DNA of 64,000 bases from Nitrospirales bacterium (GTDB lineage Bacteria; Nitrospirota; Nitrospiria; Nitrospirales; UBA8639): the NCBI GenBank assembly GCA_963422365.1, contig OY729426.1:1696001-1760000 (forward strand). The letters run 5' to 3'. The number at the start of each line of letters is the position of its first letter. Within the stretch, counting starts at the first letter, position 1. The notes under the pieces were generated by a model that made no database searches, was not told the DNA's origin, and saw only the letters and a program-made list of their open reading frames with translations. Of the stretch, positions 53,053-63,994 are shown one piece after another. The position numbers and the translations under genes are program-made.

Positions 53053-56000
53053 ATGGCGACAAAATTCTTCACCAATGACGGCGAGAATACGTTATTGGAA
53101 AAGTTCAGGGGGGTGTTTCGGCATAATCCGCATATCGCCGAATTTGATGCCCTGGTCGGTTATTTTTACTCCACAGGATATTTTCACCTGCGCCCGCATC
53201 TGCAAGACATAGGGCAAATGCGGGTGCTGGTGGGCATCGACGTGGACACAATTACCGCCCAGGCACAAGGGCGGGGATTAGCCTTGTTGTCCGGAGCGAC
53301 GCAAGAGCAGGCCAGCCGGGATTACACACGGCAGTTTCAGGAAGAAATAGATGGCGCCCGGTATGACCGGCAAACCGAGCGCAGCATTGAGCAGTTTGTG
53401 CAGGACATTGCCGATGGGAAAATTGCAATCAGGGCGCATCCCGCACGCAAGCTGCACGCCAAGATCTATATCTTCCGCCCGCAAGCGTTCAATGAACACA
53501 GCGGCGGCGAGGTGATTAGCGGCTCGTCCAACCTGACCGCGGCCGGGCTAGGCGCGGATGGCGACACTGCCAACTATGAATTCAATGTGTCGTTGCGCGA
53601 CTATGACGACATTCAATTCGCCACCAACGAGTTTGAAAAATTGTGGCATGAGTCGGTTGCGATCTTGCCCGAGGCCGTGATGGATGCCAGAAATAAGACC
53701 TACCTGCGCGGCGATTTCACGCCGTTTGAGCTCTATATCAAGCTGCTGGTTGAATACTTTGGCAGGGAAGTTGAGTTTGACCCGAACAGCATCACCGACG
53801 TACCCGACGGCTTCAAGCGCCTGAATTATCAGCTGGATGCGGTGGAGCAGGGGTACATCCTGCTGCAAAATCATCACGGCTTTTTTCTCTCCGATGTGGT
53901 GGGTCTCGGCAAAACGGTGGTGGCCACGCTGATTGCCAGAAAACACTTTTTCCTCAACAAATATCCCGAATACCGCTCGCATACGCTGATCGTCTGCCCG
54001 CCGGCGGTGTGCGCGAACTGGCGGGAAACCGTTGATCAATTTCAGCTTGACAATGTGGATCTGATGACCACCGGCAGCCTGCACACAATCACAGACCCGA
54101 AAAAATATGACCTGATCATCGTGGACGAGGCGCACAAGTTCCGAAACGACACCTCTACAAGTTATGCCGAATTGCAACGCATCTGCAAAACCCCGTGTCG
54201 CAATGACGGCAGAAAGCGGGTTATTCTGGTGTCTGCCACGCCGCTCAACAACCGCCCGGAGGATATACGCAATCAACTGCTGCTGTTTCAGGACGCCAGT
54301 GACAGTACGCTGGATATCAACATCGCCCGTTTTTTCAGCCGGGCGTCAAGGGAGTATAAGGACCTGATTAAACCCTCCGCGCCGGCTGACGCTGTCGAAC
54401 GGCTGGAATCGCTTTACGCCGGCATCCGGCGCAAAATAATTGAACCCCTGACCGTGCGGCGCACTCGTACCGACCTGTTGCGGCATCCGCTTTATGCCGA
54501 TGACCTGCAATGCCAGGGCATTGTATTTCCCAAAGTCGAGCCGCCGGCAAATCTGCTTTACCAGCTTGAGCCCGAGCTCAATGACACCTACCAGCACTCT
54601 TTTGACCTTATCCGGAACCAACACGGCAACGGCCTGCAATATATGCGCTACCGCCTGATCGAATATCTCAAGCCTGAGCATAAGCAGGACTATCAGCGCC
54701 CGGAATTTATTGCTGAACGCCTGGCGGCCATTATGAAAACCCTGCTGATCAAGCGGCTGGACAGCAGTTTTTATGCCTTTCACCAGTCGTTGAAGCGCTT
54801 TGTGCACGCTTCCCGGCAGATACTGGACATGATGGACAACAACCGCGTCTACCTTGCGCCCAAACAGCAAATTGACCAGTATCTGGAAGAAGACCGTGAG
54901 GAGGAATTACTGGAAAAACTGGTGCAGGAGCAACTCACCGACCCGAGCATCAAGGTACTCACCCGCGACGACTTTGAACCAGGGTTGTTTGCGCTGCTGC
55001 AGCAGGATCATGCGCTGTTGCAGCAGATGGAGGCCCAATGGCGGAAAGTTGTTGACCAAAAAGCCGACCCCAAACTTGAACTGCTGCTGGCCGAGTTGCC
55101 GAAGCGACTGTTGAACGCAGAGCATAACCCGGAGCGCAAACTGGTTATTTTCTCCGAATCCGCCGACACCACCGGCTATCTGTACGGGAAGCTCAGAGAC
55201 CAATACCGGGTTCTATCTATCGATTCGCACAACCGCGCCCTGCAGCAAGACATCATCCGGCAGAACTTCGACGCCAATCTGCCGCTTAAAGAGCAAAAGT
55301 CCGACTGCGATATCCTGATCGCCACCGAATCCCTGGCCGAAGGCGTCAACCTGCACCGCGCCAACACCATCGTCAACTACGACACCCCCTGGAACGCCAC
55401 CCGCCTGATGCAGCGTATCGGCCGCCTCAACCGTATCGGCAGCCCCGCCGGCGCCATTTATATCTATAACTTCTTGCCGACCGAGCAGGTGGAAGACGAC
55501 ATCGGGCTGAAGCGCCGTGCCCAGGTCAAGCTGCAAGCCTTCCACACCGCGCTCGGCGAGGATTCACAAATTTATTCCGTGGATGAAAAAGTGGAGACCT
55601 TTGGCCTGTTTGATAGAAACATCACCGAACCAGAAGAAGTCAGTGGACGGCTGGCGTACCTGATGGAAATCCGTGCGTTCAGGGAAAAGCATCCCGACGA
55701 ATTCAGACGCATCAAAAACCTGCCGCTGAAAATCCGCAATGCCGTCGCCGATCCTGAGCGCAGCGGCGCAACCCTGTGCTTTTTGCGCAACTCAAAACAC
55801 AACGCCTTTTATCAGGTAGACCACGACAATCAGGTAACCGACTTGGGCTTTCTGGAAGTTGCGCCGATTTTCAAAAGCCACCACAACGCTGCACTGATAA
55901 AGCCCCTGCCGGATGCGCATTACAATCAGGTGCAACGCGCCCTGGCGTATTTTATGGAACAGGTGCAAGATAAAATCATCAAAGAACAGCAGGCGCCGGA

Positions 56001-56325
56001 ACTCACCCCGCAGCAGCGCACGGCCATCAACTACCTCCAAGCCTTTATTAACCTCGACATTACCCATGCGAGAGAACAACAGCGTATTGCAGGGGCTATT
56101 GAATGGGTGAAACTGGGGCGTTATCAAAACCTGCCCAGAGAGATAGCCAAACTGCAAAGAAGCCAGAAAAATTCACCGGTGGTGCCCGCCAGACAACTGG
56201 AGGCACTGATAAAGATAATCGACAAGCATGCGCCGGAAACCACTGTGAACGACAGTGACGAACCGCCCGCCGAGCTGCAGGCCAACGAGCGGCCAAGGGT
56301 CGTTATTTCACAAAGCTATCTGTAG
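53053..56325 (+). CDS. PLD-nuclease / SNF2-type SF2 helicase fusion
   Basis: LHAKIYIF...GSSNLT (PLD-type HxK), SDVVGLGKT, VDEAHKFRN, SATPLNN, EGVNLH...NYDTPWNATRLMQRIGRLNRIG. Confidence 0.9.
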   Translation: MATKFFTNDGENTLLEKFRGVFRHNPHIAEFDALVGYFYSTGYFHLRPHLQDIGQMRVLVGIDVDTITAQAQGRGLALLSGATQEQASRDYTRQFQEEIDGARYDRQTERSIEQFVQDIADGKIAIRAHPARKLHAKIYIFRPQAFNEHSGGEVISGSSNLTAAGLGADGDTANYEFNVSLRDYDDIQFATNEFEKLWHESVAILPEAVMDARNKTYLRGDFTPFELYIKLLVEYFGREVEFDPNSITDVPDGFKRLNYQLDAVEQGYILLQNHHGFFLSDVVGLGKTVVATLIARKHFFLNKYPEYRSHTLIVCPPAVCANWRETVDQFQLDNVDLMTTGSLHTITDPKKYDLIIVDEAHKFRNDTSTSYAELQRICKTPCRNDGRKRVILVSATPLNNRPEDIRNQLLLFQDASDSTLDINIARFFSRASREYKDLIKPSAPADAVERLESLYAGIRRKIIEPLTVRRTRTDLLRHPLYADDLQCQGIVFPKVEPPANLLYQLEPELNDTYQHSFDLIRNQHGNGLQYMRYRLIEYLKPEHKQDYQRPEFIAERLAAIMKTLLIKRLDSSFYAFHQSLKRFVHASRQILDMMDNNRVYLAPKQQIDQYLEEDREEELLEKLVQEQLTDPSIKVLTRDDFEPGLFALLQQDHALLQQMEAQWRKVVDQKADPKLELLLAELPKRLLNAEHNPERKLVIFSESADTTGYLYGKLRDQYRVLSIDSHNRALQQDIIRQNFDANLPLKEQKSDCDILIATESLAEGVNLHRANTIVNYDTPWNATRLMQRIGRLNRIGSPAGAIYIYNFLPTEQVEDDIGLKRRAQVKLQAFHTALGEDSQIYSVDEKVETFGLFDRNITEPEEVSGRLAYLMEIRAFREKHPDEFRRIKNLPLKIRNAVADPERSGATLCFLRNSKHNAFYQVDHDNQVTDLGFLEVAPIFKSHHNAALIKPLPDAHYNQVQRALAYFMEQVQDKIIKEQQAPELTPQQRTAINYLQAFINLDITHAREQQRIAGAIEWVKLGRYQNLPREIAKLQRSQKNSPVVPARQLEALIKIIDKHAPETTVNDSDEPPAELQANERPRVVISQSYL

Positions 56326-56359
56326 CATTGGAGCACTTCAGGTTGGGAAACAAAGAGTA

Positions 56360-57580
56360 ATGCCGGGTTTTGCTGACAAAGAGCTACGACAAATCATCGA
56401 ATCCGGCGAATCCGACCACGTCGAGTTCAAGGAGTCTTTATCCGGCGACGCCGCCACCAGAATCAGGGAAGCCATCTGCGCCTTTGCCAACGATTTGGCC
56501 GCTCACGACAAACCCGGTTTTGTGTTCGTAGGCGTGAAGGACGACAAAACATTTGGCAATCTGGCGGTTACAGATTCTTTGCTGCGACAGTTGGCCGACA
56601 TGAAAACCGACGGCAATGTCCTGCCGCCGCCCTCCCTGACCGTGCAAAAGCGCATCCTGCAAGATAAAGAAATCGCCGTCGTTATCGTGCAGCCCTCCAA
56701 CTCGCCACCGGTTCGCTGCAAGGGGGTTATCCATATCCGCACCGGCCCGCGTCGTGGTATTGCCACCGCACAGGATGAAAGGACGCTCAACGAAAAGCGC
56801 TGGTATGGCGACCGCCCCTTCGACCTCCAGCCAGTCTCTGTTGCCACCTTGAGGGATCTCAACCTCTTCCGGTTCGAGCATGAATACTTGCCGCAGGCCT
56901 TTGATCGCGCAATTCTGGAAGCCAACGAACGCAGTCTCGAAGAACGGTTGGCCGCGGCCAAGATGATTGCCTCTGCTGACGATCCCGTGCCTACAGTGTT
57001 GGGGATACTTGTATTGGTCAAACGGACACTGGATCACCTGCCGGGAGCGTATCTTCAATTCTTGAGACTTGCTGGTAACGAACTCACAGCCCCCATATCC
57101 GATGAAGAAGTAATCAGCGGAACCATTACGGATGTACTGCGCCGCCTTGACGAGAAGCTGAACGGGCACAATCGGACAGCGGTTGACTTCACATCGGGAC
57201 CAGTCGAGAGACGGGTCAGTACGTATCCGGTCCCAGCGATCCAGCAGATCGCTCGTAATGCGATCATGCACCGATCATACGAAGGAAGCCACGCTCCCAC
57301 ACGAGTGTACTGGTACGACGACCGTATAGAAATACTGAGTCCCTGGGGCGTATTCGGCTCGGTAACAGTAGAGAGTTTCGGCCGACCCGGCATTACCTCC
57401 TACCGCAATCCCAATCTTGCAGAGGCGATGAGAAACCTGGGGTTCGTGCAACGCTACGGCGTCGGCATTCCATTGGCGAATCGGCTGCTTCGACAAGCCG
57501 GGCATCCTGAAATGGAATTCAATGTCGATATGAACAACGTGCAAGTCACAATACTGGCTTGCAAGAAAGACCGGACATGA
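56360..57580 (+). CDS. Schlafen/AlbA_2 domain + HATPase_c_4-like protein
   Basis: GESDHVEFKES, ICAFAN, FVGVKDD; NAIMHRSY, DRIEILSPWG, YRNPNLAEAM..LGFVQRYGVGI. Confidence 0.85.
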   Translation: MPGFADKELRQIIESGESDHVEFKESLSGDAATRIREAICAFANDLAAHDKPGFVFVGVKDDKTFGNLAVTDSLLRQLADMKTDGNVLPPPSLTVQKRILQDKEIAVVIVQPSNSPPVRCKGVIHIRTGPRRGIATAQDERTLNEKRWYGDRPFDLQPVSVATLRDLNLFRFEHEYLPQAFDRAILEANERSLEERLAAAKMIASADDPVPTVLGILVLVKRTLDHLPGAYLQFLRLAGNELTAPISDEEVISGTITDVLRRLDEKLNGHNRTAVDFTSGPVERRVSTYPVPAIQQIARNAIMHRSYEGSHAPTRVYWYDDRIEILSPWGVFGSVTVESFGRPGITSYRNPNLAEAMRNLGFVQRYGVGIPLANRLLRQAGHPEMEFNVDMNNVQVTILACKKDRT

Positions 57581-58620
57581 CCGTTCCCGTATTGACGTTT
57601 TTCAACAACAAGGGCGGCGTGGGCAAAACCTCGCTGGTCTATCACTTGGCCTGGATGCTGTCCGACATGGGGCATCGGGTGCTGGCCTGCGACCTGGACC
57701 CGCAGGCAAACCTGACCGCTGTCTTTCTGAATGAAACACAGCTTGAGGAGCTGTGGGAGACCGGCGACGGCGCGTCCGGGCGGACCATTCTGAACTGCGT
57801 CCGCCCACTGACGAAAGTGGGTGACATCAAAGCCCCGCTGCTGGCGGATATCACCCCCACGCTCCGCCTCATCCCTGGCGACCTGGCACTGGCCGGCTTT
57901 GAGGATACCCTGTCGGCGAAATGGCCGAATGCCCTGGGTTCCTCCGACAGTCTCTACCGTCCCTTACGTATTTTGACGGCATTCTCAACCGTCATGCAGA
58001 CCGGGGCAAAGCAAATGGAAGCGGATATTATCCTCGCCGACGTCGGCCCCAATCTCGGCGCGATCAACCGCTCAGCACTGATTTCGACCGACTCCATCAT
58101 CGTTCCTTTGGGCGCCGATTTGTTTTCTCTCCAGGGGCTGCGCAACCTGGGGCCCACCTTGAGCCAATGGCGACAGGACTGGCAACAGCGGAGAAACAAC
58201 TGGAAACAACCGGAATTTCCGCTGCCGAAAGGAGACATGAAACCTGTCGGCTACGTGGTGCAACAACACAGCGTGCGCCTGAGCCGCCCGGTTAAGGCAT
58301 ATGACAAATGGGTGAACCGGATGCCGGAAGAATACGCCCGGAATCTGCTGGACGATACAAAAGGCCCCTATCCGGCGACCCCGGCGCAAGACCATGAACA
58401 CGCCCTGGCCACCGTCAAGCACTATCGCAGCCTCGTGCCACTGGCACAGGAAGCGCGCAAGCCCATTTTTCACCTTACCCCGCCTGACGGCGCCATCGGC
58501 AGCCATGCCGCCGCGGTCACCGACGCCCGCCACGATTTCAGGGCACTGGCAGGGAAGATACTGGAAAGAATTGATTATCAGCGCCAGCCGAATCCCAAGC
58601 CACCGAGCCACCAAAAATGA
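57577..58620 (+). CDS. ParA/Soj-family ATPase
   Basis: FFNNKGGVGKT, DLDPQANLT, DVGPNLGAINR; ATGA overlap with the upstream gene. Confidence 0.88.
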   Translation: MTVPVLTFFNNKGGVGKTSLVYHLAWMLSDMGHRVLACDLDPQANLTAVFLNETQLEELWETGDGASGRTILNCVRPLTKVGDIKAPLLADITPTLRLIPGDLALAGFEDTLSAKWPNALGSSDSLYRPLRILTAFSTVMQTGAKQMEADIILADVGPNLGAINRSALISTDSIIVPLGADLFSLQGLRNLGPTLSQWRQDWQQRRNNWKQPEFPLPKGDMKPVGYVVQQHSVRLSRPVKAYDKWVNRMPEEYARNLLDDTKGPYPATPAQDHEHALATVKHYRSLVPLAQEARKPIFHLTPPDGAIGSHAAAVTDARHDFRALAGKILERIDYQRQPNPKPPSHQK

Positions 58621-58635
58621 CTATTTCACAGCCCT

Positions 58636-61600
58636 ATGTCTGATTTGCAAACCTTATTAAGCAGTGGCTACGACCGCGAAAGCTGGCTAGCCCGATTGCA
58701 GCAGTTTTTCCCCGGCATTGAAATTTTCTCACAGCCGCAAGCTGTTGAAGACAACCGCGCAGCGTCCTTTGACTATCTCGGCAAGGTTCCCACTGCGGAC
58801 GGCCAGCAGTTGGGCATCTATGAAATAAAAGTCGGCGCTAACACCCAGCTCGCCCGCAACCGTGTGCAACTACGCCAGATGGTGGCCAAACAGGTTTCAG
58901 CGCATACCCTGGGTGGTGCACTGGCGGTTTACTACGACCATGGCCAACAGTGGCGGTTCAGCTTCATCAGCATGGAATACAAGCTGAACGAGCAGGGACA
59001 GATCGACAAGCAGGAAAGCACCTCCAAACGCTACACCTATCTGCTGGGCAAAGGTGCCAACGTCCGCACCGCGGTTGAGCGATTTGACCATCTACCGCAG
59101 CAACCATCGCTCGAAGACTTCAAAGCCGCCTTCGCCGTAGAGCCGTTGAACAAGGAATTCTATGAAAAACTGTTCAACTGGTATGAATACGCCAAATCCG
59201 AAGTCGTTTTCCCCAACGACGAACGCGAACCACAAGACAACCATACCGCTACCAGCCTGATCCGCCTGCTCACCCGTCTGCTGTTCGTCTGGTTTATCAA
59301 AGAGAAGAAGCTGGTCAACCCCGACCTGTTTGACCAGGAGCAATTGCAATCCATCATTGACTGGAAGAAAGACAGCAGCTACTACAAAGCCATTTTGCAG
59401 AATCTGTTCTTCGCCACGCTGAACCGCGAGATCAAAGACCGCAGCTTTCGCACGACTACCGACGGCAAGGCCAACAGCAGCAATTATCTCGTGACCAATA
59501 TCTACCGCTATCGGGACCATTTTCAGGAGAGCAATAAAGACAATATCATCGCCCGCTTTGCGCAGACCCCTTTCCTGAACGGCGGACTATTTGAGTGCCT
59601 GGACCGGCAAGCCAATGAGGATGAACAACAGAAATATGAAAAAGACAAAACCATCCGCAATGAAAGATATGCCATGCGCATGGACGGCTTTTCCGACCGG
59701 GCGGACAATCCCCTCAGCCTGCCCAATGCATTGTTTTTCAGCGATGACGAACGCAAACCCGGCCTGATCGACCTGCTGCATCAATACCAGTTCACGGTGG
59801 AGGAGTCCACCCCGCTGGATATTGAAGTGGCGCTGGACCCGGAGCTGCTGGGCAAGGTGTTTGAAAACCTGCTGGCGGCCTATAACCCTGAAACCGAGCA
59901 AACCGCCCGTAACGCCACTGGCAGCTACTACACCCCGCGTGAGATTGTCGGTTATATGGTGGATGAAAGTCTGAAAGCGTATCTGGCCGGCGCGGTGCCG
60001 CCGCAGGATGGCGATGCTGAATTCTGGCGCGAACGCTTGGACGATCTGTTTAACATGGCCTCTCAGACCGGGGAACTGGCAGAGAAAAATGGGAAAGCCC
60101 TGCTGTATGACGAAGAAATCCCCGAACTCATTCAAGCCATCGACCAGGTCAAAATCCTCGACCCGGCAGTGGGTTCCGGCGCCTTCCCCATGGGTGCTTT
60201 GCAGCGGCTGGTCGGGCTGCTGGCGATTCTCGACCCGAACAACCGGCAATGGAAAGAGCAGCAACTGCTCAATCTGCCGGATATGCAATCCATCCAGGCC
60301 GACCTGCAAACATCAGAAAACATCAACGACTGGCAAGCCAGACAAAAGGCGCAAGAGGAATTGCAACAGCGAAAGCAGGAAATCACCCGGGCATTTGAAA
60401 CAGAAGCCGACTACGCCCGCAAACTTTATCTGATAGAAAACGCCATCTGCGGCGTGGATATCCAGCCCATCGCCTGCCAGATTGCCAAACTGCGCTTTTT
60501 CATCTCCCTGGCCATAGAGCAGCAACCGACCGCCGACAAGAAGGACAATTACGGCATCAAGGCCCTGCCTAATCTGGAGACCAGATTTATTGCTGCCAAC
60601 AGCCTCATCGGCCTGGACAAGCCCAGGCAGACGGTAATACGCAATCCGGCCATTCAGGAAAAAGAACGGGAACTGAACCGGGTGCGCCGCCGCCACTTCA
60701 ACGCCAAAACCCTAAAAACCAAAAGGCAATATCGGGAACAGGATAAAACACTCCGTGAAGAGATTGCCGCGTTATTGATAAGTGATGGCTGGGGCGACAG
60801 CAATGCCGAGAAAGTCGCCCACTGGGATCCCTACAACCAGAACGCTGTCGCCGACTGGTTCGACCCGGAATGGATGTTCGGCATCAGCGACGGCTTTGAC
60901 GTGGTGCTGGGCAATCCGCCGTATATCCAATTGCAGAAGAACGGCGGCATGCTGGCAAATCTCTACGAAAACAGGGGCTTTGAAACCTTTGTGCGCTCTG
61001 GCGACATCTACCAGTTGTTTTATGAACGCGCCGGTCAACTGCTGGGTAACCAGAGCCACCTGTGCTTCATTACCTCTAACAAATGGATGCGCGCCAAATA
61101 TGGCGAGAAACTCCGCGCCTTCTTTACCACCCTAACCCCCAAAGTTTTGCTGGATTTTGGTGGGTTCAAAGTCTTCGAGAATGCCACGGTGGATACCAAT
61201 ATCCTGCTCATTACAAAGGAAAACGTGCAAGGCGAGTTGTGGGCAACGGCGTTCAAAGACGATTTCAAACAAGGCGACAGCATCGGCGATTACGCGCAGA
61301 ACAACGCCGTTTCTATTAACGTAACGCCCGATACCTGGTTTATCGGCAGCCGTGCGGAAGTCGCATTAAAAGAAAAGATTGAGCGCATCGGCACACCGCT
61401 AAAAGAATGGGATATAGCCATTTATCGAGGAATACTGACGGGACTTAACGCCGCCTTTATCGTCGATAAAAAGACCAAAGACGCACTGATTGCCGAGGAT
61501 CCCAGATCGGCGGAGCTACTAAAACCGATCCTGCGCGGAAGGGATATCAAGCGGTATCGGGCGGAATGGGCGGGGCTGTGGGTGATCGCGACTTTGCCGT

Positions 61601-62187
61601 CTTTACACGTTGACATTGAGAACTATCCGGCAATAAAACGATATTTGCTTTCTTACGGCAAAGAAAAGCTAGAACAGACAGGAGAAACGCTTGTTGATGG
61701 AAGCAAGTCGCGAAAGAAAACCCCTCATCAGTGGTTTGAATTACAGGATACATGCGCTTACCACGCGGAATTTGAACGCGATAAGCTCGTTTGGGGAAAC
61801 TTGTCTGTTCAGCCAAGGTTTGCTGTAGATACGGATGCCAGCTCTATTTCTGCACCAACCAATCTTCTTACGGGAACGGATCAAATAAAATATATTGCTG
61901 CGATTCTCAATAGTTCATTTTGCTATTGGAGCATGAGGCGATTGGCTTACAGCAGAGAACACGGATATATGGAATACAAGAAAATTTTTGTGGAACAGAT
62001 ACACATTCCGAAAATCTCCAAAGTGAGACAACAACCGTTTACAGATTTAGTAGATAAAATCCTTGCTGCCAAAAAGGCTAATCCTGATGCAGATACAAGC
62101 GAACGGGAAAAGGAAATCGACCGCCTCGTCTATGCGTTGTACGATCTCACCGAGAAAGAAATTCAGGTAATTGAAGGCATTGCCTGA
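58636..62187 (+). CDS. Type IIG / Eco57I-like N6-adenine methyltransferase with TaqI_C-like target recognition domain
   Basis: PFLNGGLF, LDPELLGKVFENLL, TGSYYTPREIV, ILDPAVGSGAF, GFDVVLGNPPY, FITSNKW, KPILRGRDIKRY, EIDRLVYALYDLT. Confidence 0.92.
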   Translation: MSDLQTLLSSGYDRESWLARLQQFFPGIEIFSQPQAVEDNRAASFDYLGKVPTADGQQLGIYEIKVGANTQLARNRVQLRQMVAKQVSAHTLGGALAVYYDHGQQWRFSFISMEYKLNEQGQIDKQESTSKRYTYLLGKGANVRTAVERFDHLPQQPSLEDFKAAFAVEPLNKEFYEKLFNWYEYAKSEVVFPNDEREPQDNHTATSLIRLLTRLLFVWFIKEKKLVNPDLFDQEQLQSIIDWKKDSSYYKAILQNLFFATLNREIKDRSFRTTTDGKANSSNYLVTNIYRYRDHFQESNKDNIIARFAQTPFLNGGLFECLDRQANEDEQQKYEKDKTIRNERYAMRMDGFSDRADNPLSLPNALFFSDDERKPGLIDLLHQYQFTVEESTPLDIEVALDPELLGKVFENLLAAYNPETEQTARNATGSYYTPREIVGYMVDESLKAYLAGAVPPQDGDAEFWRERLDDLFNMASQTGELAEKNGKALLYDEEIPELIQAIDQVKILDPAVGSGAFPMGALQRLVGLLAILDPNNRQWKEQQLLNLPDMQSIQADLQTSENINDWQARQKAQEELQQRKQEITRAFETEADYARKLYLIENAICGVDIQPIACQIAKLRFFISLAIEQQPTADKKDNYGIKALPNLETRFIAANSLIGLDKPRQTVIRNPAIQEKERELNRVRRRHFNAKTLKTKRQYREQDKTLREEIAALLISDGWGDSNAEKVAHWDPYNQNAVADWFDPEWMFGISDGFDVVLGNPPYIQLQKNGGMLANLYENRGFETFVRSGDIYQLFYERAGQLLGNQSHLCFITSNKWMRAKYGEKLRAFFTTLTPKVLLDFGGFKVFENATVDTNILLITKENVQGELWATAFKDDFKQGDSIGDYAQNNAVSINVTPDTWFIGSRAEVALKEKIERIGTPLKEWDIAIYRGILTGLNAAFIVDKKTKDALIAEDPRSAELLKPILRGRDIKRYRAEWAGLWVIATLPSLHVDIENYPAIKRYLLSYGKEKLEQTGETLVDGSKSRKKTPHQWFELQDTCAYHAEFERDKLVWGNLSVQPRFAVDTDASSISAPTNLLTGTDQIKYIAAILNSSFCYWSMRRLAYSREHGYMEYKKIFVEQIHIPKISKVRQQPFTDLVDKILAAKKANPDADTSEREKEIDRLVYALYDLTEKEIQVIEGIA
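61412..61792 (+). repeat. 381-bp inverted repeat, left copy (inside the Type IIG gene)
   Basis: ATATAGCCATTTATCG...ATAAGCTCGTTT; reverse complement at 62573-62953; translations match in the coding and shadow frames. Confidence 0.95.
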
Positions 62188-62188
62188 G

Positions 62189-62972
62189 TTAATTCATCGC
62201 TTCCACAAGTTCAATTTCCTTCTCCGTCAGGCCGTATAATTGATATACCAGTCGGTCAATCTCGGCTTCTATCGCGGTGGTGTCCTTCCTTTTTTCCTTG
62301 CCAGCAATCACTCTATCCACCAAGTCGATGAAGGGTTGTTGCGTTATTTCCAAGATTCGCGGTGCTGGAAAATTCTCAAAAAACACTTTGCTCAATTCTC
62401 TTGTCCCGCCAAGCAATTCTGGGCAATTTTCCCGTAACCATTTTGCTCCAACTCTTGAATTCAGTATCGCGGTAAGAAATTTCAGATGTTTCCCAGTAAC
62501 TATGAAGCATTTTTGGTTTGTGAAAATTTTATGTATCAAATACAAAAGGTAAAAACTTCGTCATATTGGGATAAACGAGCTTATCGCGTTCAAATTCCGC
62601 GTGGTAAGCGCATGTATCCTGTAATTCAAACCACTGATGAGGGGTTTTCTTTCGCGACTTGCTTCCATCAACAAGCGTTTCTCCTGTCTGTTCTAGCTTT
62701 TCTTTGCCGTAAGAAAGCAAATATCGTTTTATTGCCGGATAGTTCTCAATGTCAACGTGTAAAGACGGCAAAGTCGCGATCACCCACAGCCCCGCCCATT
62801 CCGCCCGATACCGCTTGATATCCCTTCCGCGCAGGATCGGTTTTAGTAGCTCCGCCGATCTGGGATCCTCGGCAATCAGTGCGTCTTTGGTCTTTTTATC
62901 GACGATAAAGGCGGCGTTAAGTCCCGTCAGTATTCCTCGATAAATGGCTATATGCGTTACTAATCTCAACAC
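62189..62972 (-). other. Inverted alternative 3' cassette of the Type IIG gene (repeat plus a different TRD tail), with a frameshift at ~62530
   Basis: ORF 62529-62972 repeats IAIYRG...ERDKLV then diverges (YPNMTKFLPFVFDT*); ORF 62189-62545 continues FTNQKCF...EIDRLVYQLYGLTEKEI. Confidence 0.9.
62573..62953 (-). repeat. 381-bp inverted repeat, right copy
   Basis: AAACGAGCTTAT...CGATAAATGGCTATAT is the reverse complement of 61412-61792. Confidence 0.95.
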
Positions 62973-63019
62973 TTATATTTGCTCTCCTTTCAATAAACCA
63001 CACATCAGGAGAGCATAGG

Positions 63020-63994
63020 ATGACGAAATCTACTCATATCTGCACCGACAAAGCGATCTTCTCCGACAGCCTGCGCCACGCGCACATGGCCGACAACACC
63101 CGCCGCGTGTACGGCGAGGGCTGGGCGCTGTTTGCCGACTGGTGTACGCAAGCAGGATGTGAGCCGCTGGCGGTTTCACCCCAGGACCTCGTGGACTTTT
63201 TCACTGAGTTGGCACTTCGCCGCAGAAAAGGCACAGAGAAGCCGCTGGCCTACGGCACCTTGATGCTGGTGCGGTGTGCAGTACGCCGCCGGTATGCGGA
63301 CGCCAATCTGACGTCGCCGACCCATCATCCAGAAGTCACCAACCTATTCCGTGGCTTGGCCCGCCTGCGTGGCACAAAGCCGAGACGGGCCAACGCCCTA
63401 CGCGAAGATCACATGGCCGCGATCCTGGCCTGTTGTCCCCCGACCGCCCGTGGCGCACGGGACGCCGCCGTGCTGGCGATTGGCTTTGCGGCCGCCTTGC
63501 GCCGCTCGGAATTATGCGGGCTGTCGATAGGGGATATTGAACGGTTTCTGACGGCGGAGGGGGAACCCTCCGGTATCATATTGCATATCCGTCGCTCGAA
63601 GACGGACCAGGCAGGGCGGGGCCAACAGGTCGCGGTGCCCGCCGGGAAACGGATTCGCCCGGTCGCCGTCCTGGATCGCTGGCTCCGCATCCGTGGCTCC
63701 CACGCCGGCCCACTTTTTCAATCATTGCGCCGGGGCGGACGACTCACCGGCCGCCCGCTCCACCACTCTGACATTCCGCGCCTGGTGAAACAGTATGCCG
63801 CGGCCATTGGGCTGGACCCGGCCGGGTTCTCCGCCCACTCCTTGCGGGCAGGCTTCGTCACCAGTGCCGCGGTCCATCATGCGCGGATGGACAAGATCAT
63901 GGCGGTCACCCGTCACACCAACACGAATACAGTCATGAAATACATCCGCGATGCGGCCGTGTTTACGGACCATGCCGGACAGGAGTTTCTGTGA
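63020..63994 (+). CDS. Tyrosine recombinase (Cre-like phage integrase family)
   Basis: RDAAVL..GFAAALRRSEL (R), RSKTDQ (K), HSLRAG (HxxR), TRH, VMKY (Y). Confidence 0.93.
   Translation: MTKSTHICTDKAIFSDSLRHAHMADNTRRVYGEGWALFADWCTQAGCEPLAVSPQDLVDFFTELALRRRKGTEKPLAYGTLMLVRCAVRRRYADANLTSPTHHPEVTNLFRGLARLRGTKPRRANALREDHMAAILACCPPTARGARDAAVLAIGFAAALRRSELCGLSIGDIERFLTAEGEPSGIILHIRRSKTDQAGRGQQVAVPAGKRIRPVAVLDRWLRIRGSHAGPLFQSLRRGGRLTGRPLHHSDIPRLVKQYAAAIGLDPAGFSAHSLRAGFVTSAAVHHARMDKIMAVTRHTNTNTVMKYIRDAAVFTDHAGQEFL

Follow-up and report, generated by a model that had tools for sequence, protein, structure and literature searches.

We analyzed a 64,000-nucleotide stretch of the genome of a Nitrospirales bacterium (contig OY729426.1, positions 1,696,001 to 1,760,000 of the forward strand), called the window below. 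Near its 3' end lies a gene for a Type IIG-like adenine methyltransferase, followed tail-to-tail by an inverted, 5'-truncated partner copy and by a gene for a Cre-like tyrosine recombinase. Inverted repeats overlap the coding sequence, and the recombinase gene, with its catalytic residues intact, adjoins the invertible region at a distance of 66 bp. This is the arrangement of a programmed-inversion locus. Its features are the following (positions in the window):

58636 to 62187, plus strand: Type IIG-like adenine methyltransferase, expressed allele A, 1183 aa (PADLOC REase_MTase_IIG, 8e-159; Pfam Eco57I and TaqI_C)
61412 to 61792, plus strand: left arm of the 381-bp inverted repeat, residues 927-1053, holding recognition-domain modules 0 and 1, the same in both copies
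61793 to 62187, plus strand: tail A, that is module 2, the distal recognition domain, in frame
62189 to 62572, minus strand: tail B, the silent alternative module 2, with a frameshift near 62520-62537 and an early stop at 62529-62531
62573 to 62953, minus strand: right arm, belonging to the silent copy, which is 5'-truncated and begins at the codon of residue 927
63020 to 63994, plus strand: Cre-like tyrosine recombinase, 324 aa (Pfam Phage_integrase; R162, K194, H273, R276, H299 and Y308 present)

Structure of the inverted repeat

The initial annotation, made from the letters of the window, had described a 381-bp inverted repeat around an AT-richer segment with two homologous, tail-to-tail C-termini, and a complete recombinase gene next to it. 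All of this was borne out. The arms are 381 nt each, 100% complementary and 780 nt apart. GC content rises from 0.41 in the inter-arm segment through 0.48 (arm) and 0.53 (5' part of the gene) to 0.64 (recombinase gene). Tails A and B share 42% identity over 106 aa, and a single base pair separates their stop codons (TGA at 62185-62187 on the plus strand, TAA at 62189-62191 on the minus strand). Across the genome (2.5 Mb) 12 inverted pairs reached 100 nt and 97% identity; the 381-nt pair was the only one with arms less than 12 kb apart. A promoter scan of positions 62100-63100 gave 2 weak sites, with 1.2 expected by chance.

Perfect identity over 381 bp is unusual in comparison with related loci, where 10 of 11 carry short, imperfect repeats (115-179 bp, 73-97% identical, in most cases accompanied by a further repeat of 44-56 bp). 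This would fit an assembly artefact, in which the second arm or the frameshift would be spurious. We compared the region with contigs and unitigs of 4 of the 10 listed public runs. The tail B-arm, arm-recombinase and arm-5' gene junctions were all present in contigs of runs X3 and X5, one of which may be the source sample, and the junction on the recombinase side of the arm was also present in X8. The arm contig of X5 had a depth of 41.6, about twice that of the recombinase contig (18.8). Since contigs from public runs of two studies hold all of the repeat junctions, the second copy is not an assembly artefact. This largely refutes the artefact reading, and we regard an error as extremely improbable.

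Methyltransferase

The methyltransferase carries the motifs DPAVGSG at 509 and NPPY at 760, and its structural model matched CamA (E 6.5e-26). By its domains, its motifs and this match, it is a gamma-class adenine methyltransferase with a fused recognition domain. It had been annotated as a single-chain Type IIG restriction-modification (R-M) enzyme. The methyltransferase with its fused recognition domain stands, while the nuclease part is uncertain. The N-terminal 170 residues have a confident fold (pLDDT 88), and they show a weak likeness, at background level, to the N-terminal nuclease domains of BpuSI (Z 5.4, rmsd 5.1, 136 residues aligned) and DrdV (Z 5.2, rmsd 3.8, 110 residues aligned). 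Foldseek with this domain returned no match at E ≤ 0.001; the domain atlas gave MmeI_N as a lead (0.85). Within an N-terminal E-x-K, E63 is kept in 88 of 93 homologues and the lysine K65 in only 23 of 93, so the family does not conserve a catalytic lysine.

Recombinase and related loci

Compared with solved structures, the recombinase profile matched Cre best (E 2e-15). The protein has the R-K-H-R-H/W-Y catalytic set, whose residues are invariant columns in 40 relatives, and it resembles Cre over its full length. A search of genome contigs yielded 23 loci, of which 20 were distant actinobacterial-type recombinases without a IIG match. The two closest full-length recombinases, from a Dehalococcoidia metagenome-assembled genome (MAG) and a Gammaproteobacteria MAG, stood in the same layout as here. 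Metagenome contigs gave 34 distant loci with 25-50% identity in the best segment, and the best rows of the plasmid search were 22-47% identical.

Further, we built a profile from 40 clade members and searched 555 genomes sampled around the Dehalococcoidia and Gammaproteobacteria hosts and around an Arenicellales MAG. Outside this genome we detected 22 strong loci (>430 bits) and 6 weaker ones. The synteny proposed in the initial annotation (IIG gene, inverted partial copy, integrase) was found at 11 of the 22 strong loci, all in other lineages: a IIG gene, followed by its inverted copy from approximately residue 925-934 and by the recombinase, whose orientation is the same. None of the 6 weaker matches (L149-L154, three of them on short contigs) had the cassette. 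We also searched in reverse, with the recognition domain, in two taxon samples. A match was found in 28 of 502 genomes, and 10 of these 28 carried an inverted pair; the recombinase was directly adjacent in 9 of the 10 and approximately 13 kb away in the tenth (G657). No genome with a single-copy recognition domain had a clade recombinase within 1.5 kb. The position and orientation of the recombinase were fixed in 12 loci, at about 50-330 bp from the silent copy.

Loci of the clade without the cassette were L132, L136-L141, L143-L145 and L148. Several of their recombinases lie beside secD or ilvD, and L140 and L148 contain other inverted repeats, which end just upstream of the recombinase.

Modules and boxes of the intact cassettes

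In 9 of the 11 related loci the silent copy keeps an open frame of at least 240 aa, and inversion there would give an alternative full-length allele. Three modules vary between the partners. The first, module 0, differs in 8 of 11 loci (YRGI[LT] versus [NY]YGIK). Module 1 differs in 9 of 11, where it is of a 68-residue or a 59-residue type, with a third type in one locus. The third variable module is the tail. Three blocks are identical or nearly identical between partners, one of 6 nt at the outer end, one of approximately 26 nt at the AFIVDKKTK codons, and one of 13-14 nt at the CAYH codons. We call them boxes and regard them as candidate crossover points:

61417 to 61422, plus strand: box 0, candidate crossover point, the outer 6 nt, identical between partners in 10 of 10 non-homogenised related loci
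61453 to 61478, plus strand: box 1, candidate crossover point, codons AFIVDKKTK, which include a short palindrome; partners almost invariant over about 26 nt
61753 to 61765, plus strand: box 2, candidate crossover point, codons CAYH, partners identical in 9 of 9 scored related loci

Homology between partners stops just upstream of box 0. The mirror copies of boxes 1 and 2 lie at 62887-62912 and 62600-62612, respectively. The initial annotation had placed recombination within the 381-bp repeats. The repeat is a homogenised stretch and not the native recombination site; the relatives carry short boxes instead.

Orthologous tails were found in the expressed position of one genome and in the silent position of another (over 75 aa: L042A/L147B 79%, L131A/L133B 72%, L133A/L131B 67%, L129B/L130A 81%). 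Therefore exchange has happened. We used the base-contact residues of CamA, as given in PMC8187626, to place contacts in the modules by alignment, with positions counted by hand. In module 0 the equivalents of Gln346 and Ile349 are R931 and L934. Module 1 contains the equivalents of Arg425, Gln438 and Trp439, and the tail those of Tyr455, Lys456, Ser472 and Ala473; Ser514, Ile517 and Tyr521 of CamA, past the aligned part, would also fall in the tail. Because each of the modules aligns to CamA base-contact residues, all three should affect specificity.

The same cassettes allow another explanation, in which RecA-type gene conversion or homologous inversion draws on the silent copy as its donor, and the recombinase is a defence-island integrase standing there by chance. 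Half of the clade loci are without the cassette, cassette L217 is without an adjacent recombinase, and 3 of 13 cassettes have homogenised arms of 344-381 bp, which points to conversion; the island here is also 92-93% identical in nucleotides to the Arenicellales MAG L043. Chance is countered by the fixed place and orientation of the recombinase near the silent copy. Moreover, homology stops at the same codon in all loci, and module 0 differs in 8 of 11 behind an identical block of 6-13 nt, which is too short for RecA. We find this explanation unlikely.

Silent copy of this genome

In this genome tail B is out of frame with the arm. Reading on from the arm gives YPNMTKFLPFVFDT and then a stop, 14 codons in, while the portion beginning NQKCF lies in another frame; the flipped allele would encode 1066 aa and not an alternative full-length protein. 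The orthologue in L135 is intact, and relative to it there is a net loss of 2 bases at the break. In its first 75 aa, tail A shares 60% identity with the tail that L135 expresses. In unitigs of runs X3 and X5 (studies P3 and P4) tail B is covered without a single differing letter or gap. Since the letters are identical in both, the frameshift is not a sequencing error.

We considered that the A/B switch may still work here, if some cells had an intact tail B or read through the break. The recombinase is intact, and downstream of the break tail B keeps an open frame of 111 aa, 53% identical to the intact L135 copy over 113 aa; the loss is therefore recent. Set against this are the same broken letters, without a gap, in the unitigs of two studies, although unitigs drop rare variants. 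Runs at the break are of 4 bases at most, too short for frequent slippage. A working A/B switch in this organism is thus quite improbable. The initial annotation had predicted a switch of specificity by exchange of the distal target recognition domain (TRD). As the design of the locus this is upheld by the intact relatives and by the swapped tails; for this genome it is not supported, with tail B frameshifted and the flipped protein truncated.

In this genome the two copies do not differ in modules 0 and 1. Their homogenisation, probably by gene conversion, accounts for the length of the 381-bp repeat, and a flip at any box would now swap the tail only. Comparable homogenisation was observed in L146 (363 bp, with the silent copy frameshifted) and L217 (344 bp). 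A second, decayed cassette in the same genome (L002, G000:C1:617601-618993) keeps the alternatives that are missing here, a 59-residue-type module 1 and a YGIK stub. Its recombinase is frameshifted, with 79% DNA identity.

Both breakpoints of this remnant lie at GATAA of box 1. The surrounding region (G000:C1:617601-620450) also contains IIG 3'-end fragments and then a TIR-NTPase gene (822 aa). The tail B unitig of run X5 (L001:6161-6603) had a depth of 46, and the depths of tail A and the recombinase were 19-24, a hint that this sample holds another copy of tail B.

Proposed mechanism

We think it likely that the locus is a degenerate programmed-inversion system which varied the recognition domain of a Type IIG-like enzyme, and that it is now either an ON/OFF switch or a relic in orientation A. 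The design emerges from the comparison of loci, and the mechanism that we infer from it would be as follows. One gene is expressed, and one inverted, 5'-truncated copy of the recognition domain is silent. The adjacent Cre-like recombinase, judged by its genomic association with the cassette, would cross over at the short conserved boxes inside the coding sequence. Such a crossover would exchange one, two or three base-contacting modules and so change the methylated or protected motif in part of the population. In the present state a flip would give either full allele A or the 1066-aa protein. The latter would have lost distal base-contact loops, the counterparts of CamA 472-521 and the C-terminal helices seen in the model, and is probably inactive. 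With a working recombinase, or with RecA acting on the long repeat, ON/OFF variation would result; otherwise the locus would be a relic fixed in A. Because tail B is frameshifted, the locus is at best one of these and not an A/B specificity switch.

Several observations weigh against this interpretation. The flipped orientation was seen in no read or contig of this organism; its unitigs end at the perfect repeat, and raw Hi-C run X9 gave 0 matching reads. The clade is not exclusive to the cassette, since 11 of the 22 strong loci are without it. The compared genomes include close kin, and the counts, which are not independent, are given with no statistic. The boxes are conserved across loci too, at identities of 0.73-0.91, so that constraint on the protein accounts for some of their signal. 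The mapping of contacts combines a structural relative of 16% identity with a sequence alignment.

A bolder version is that a mobile Cre-like clade with unrelated bacterial hosts shuffles one TaqI/CamA-type domain at three very short boxes within conserved codons, so that two copies would give up to eight specificities, and that the system has here been made into an ON/OFF switch. We put this forward tentatively, with more doubt than confidence. If it is true, one of the exchangeable units is only about 8 codons long and carries two predicted base contacts.

Comparison with known systems

Inversion of Type II R-M genes is already described: the main text of Milman 2023 (PMC9881135) reports their programmed inversion, with 11 loci confirmed by long reads, and Eco57I-domain genes enriched among the predicted targets (odds ratio 16). 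The confirmed loci include homologues of C. jejuni Cj0031 with an adjacent PLD+SNF gene, for example in Bacteroides ovatus CP083813.1. This class resembles our locus in its Eco57I-domain Type II enzyme of approximately 1120-1240 aa and the PLD-SNF helicase gene beside it, the likeness being judged by domain content and by this neighbour only. It also shares the asymmetric, tail-to-tail arrangement of gene and 5'-truncated copy, with inverted repeats in the coding sequence. In that class inversion was seen by long reads, whereas here it is predicted from the sequence. Further differences are the frameshifted silent tail, the homogenised arms and the two genes between helicase and methyltransferase. 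The main-text passages of PMC9881135 drawn on name no recombinase family or crossover boxes for the class. Our literature search found no paper on the recombinase clade or on the boxes; the supplements of PMC9881135, which lay outside it, may cover both.

Type I hsdS invertons (SpnD39III/ivr, Bfa9343I, Tde35405VII), as presented in PMC7672463, likewise exchange modules between expressed and silent copies through nested inverted repeats, with an adjacent invertase. They act on a separate HsdS subunit with two TRDs, whereas our locus has a Cre-like recombinase and three sub-modules of one TaqI/CamA-type domain, in one protein with the catalytic domain. Inversions of BREX-1 PglX and DISARM DrmMI (PMC9881135) also shuffle the recognition part of a large adenine methyltransferase. 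Our gene scored 54.8 bits with the PglX profile and did not reach the NCBIfam cut-off of 500, and no brx or drm gene set was seen beside it. CamA of Clostridioides difficile (PDB 7LNI) is the closest solved structure of the catalytic and recognition domains; as described in the sections of PMC8187626 drawn on, it is an orphan methyltransferase of 577 aa, with no N-terminal extension and no switch.

Because the kind is already published, the locus adds range and detail and no new principle. What it contributes is a recombinase clade that accompanies the cassette in several lineages, a set of candidate crossover boxes, and naturally swapped modules at positions predicted to contact bases. Together, swaps, boxes and clade make a ready set for decoding the recognition code of the methyltransferases. 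With its broken spare copy this genome is a poor model, and L135, with an intact orthologue, would be a better one.

Neighbouring genes and defence island

One more gene of the window probably belongs to the system as a partner of the methyltransferase:

53053 to 56325, plus strand: PLD-nuclease/SNF2 helicase fusion, 1090 aa (Pfam PLDc_2, SNF2-rel_dom and Helicase_C; H-x-K, Walker A and DEAH motifs)

A homologue of it adjoins the IIG gene in most of the related loci, and DNA cutting may come from this protein. Two genes, one of AlbA_2/HATPase_c_4 type and one ParA-like, stand between helicase and methyltransferase (56255-58620), and L149 has a similar pair after its weaker clade recombinase.

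The clade recombinase was absent at E ≤ 1e-40 from 300 other genomes of the phylum of the window. Within the genus, a IIG match occurred in 11 of 37 other genomes; the flanking sequence retrieved for these held no inverted copy. Across 2.3 kb at its 5' end the IIG gene shares 92% DNA identity with that of the Arenicellales MAG L043, which has another recognition domain. Because of this identity and the absence of the clade from the 300 genomes, we infer that the defence island arrived by recent transfer between distant lineages. The homologues come from sources named Candidatus Spongiihabitans, Poribacteria and Entotheonellaceae, which are sponge taxa, and the names suggest sponge-associated hosts. 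A literature search on R-M invertons of sponge symbionts found nothing.

Just past the window (G000:C1:1760041-1763678, L001:8042-11679) we observed short IIG 3'-end fragments, DUF3644, HAD and HARE-HTH genes and a recombinase remnant, together with a 194-bp, 90%-identical inverted copy of the junction between the stops of tails A and B. Parts of this stretch are 92-93% identical to L043, where the IIG gene is followed by ThsB-TIR, Panacea and DUF3644 genes with IIG 3'-end fragments between them (L043:796-8269). An integron-like reading of the downstream fragments was set aside, as they lie among broken recombinase pieces also present in L043, which fits scars of a decaying island. In another locus, L041, the IIG gene is without its N-terminal third, and a CRISPR-like array with a period of approximately 61 bp lies directly upstream (L041:12-3831).

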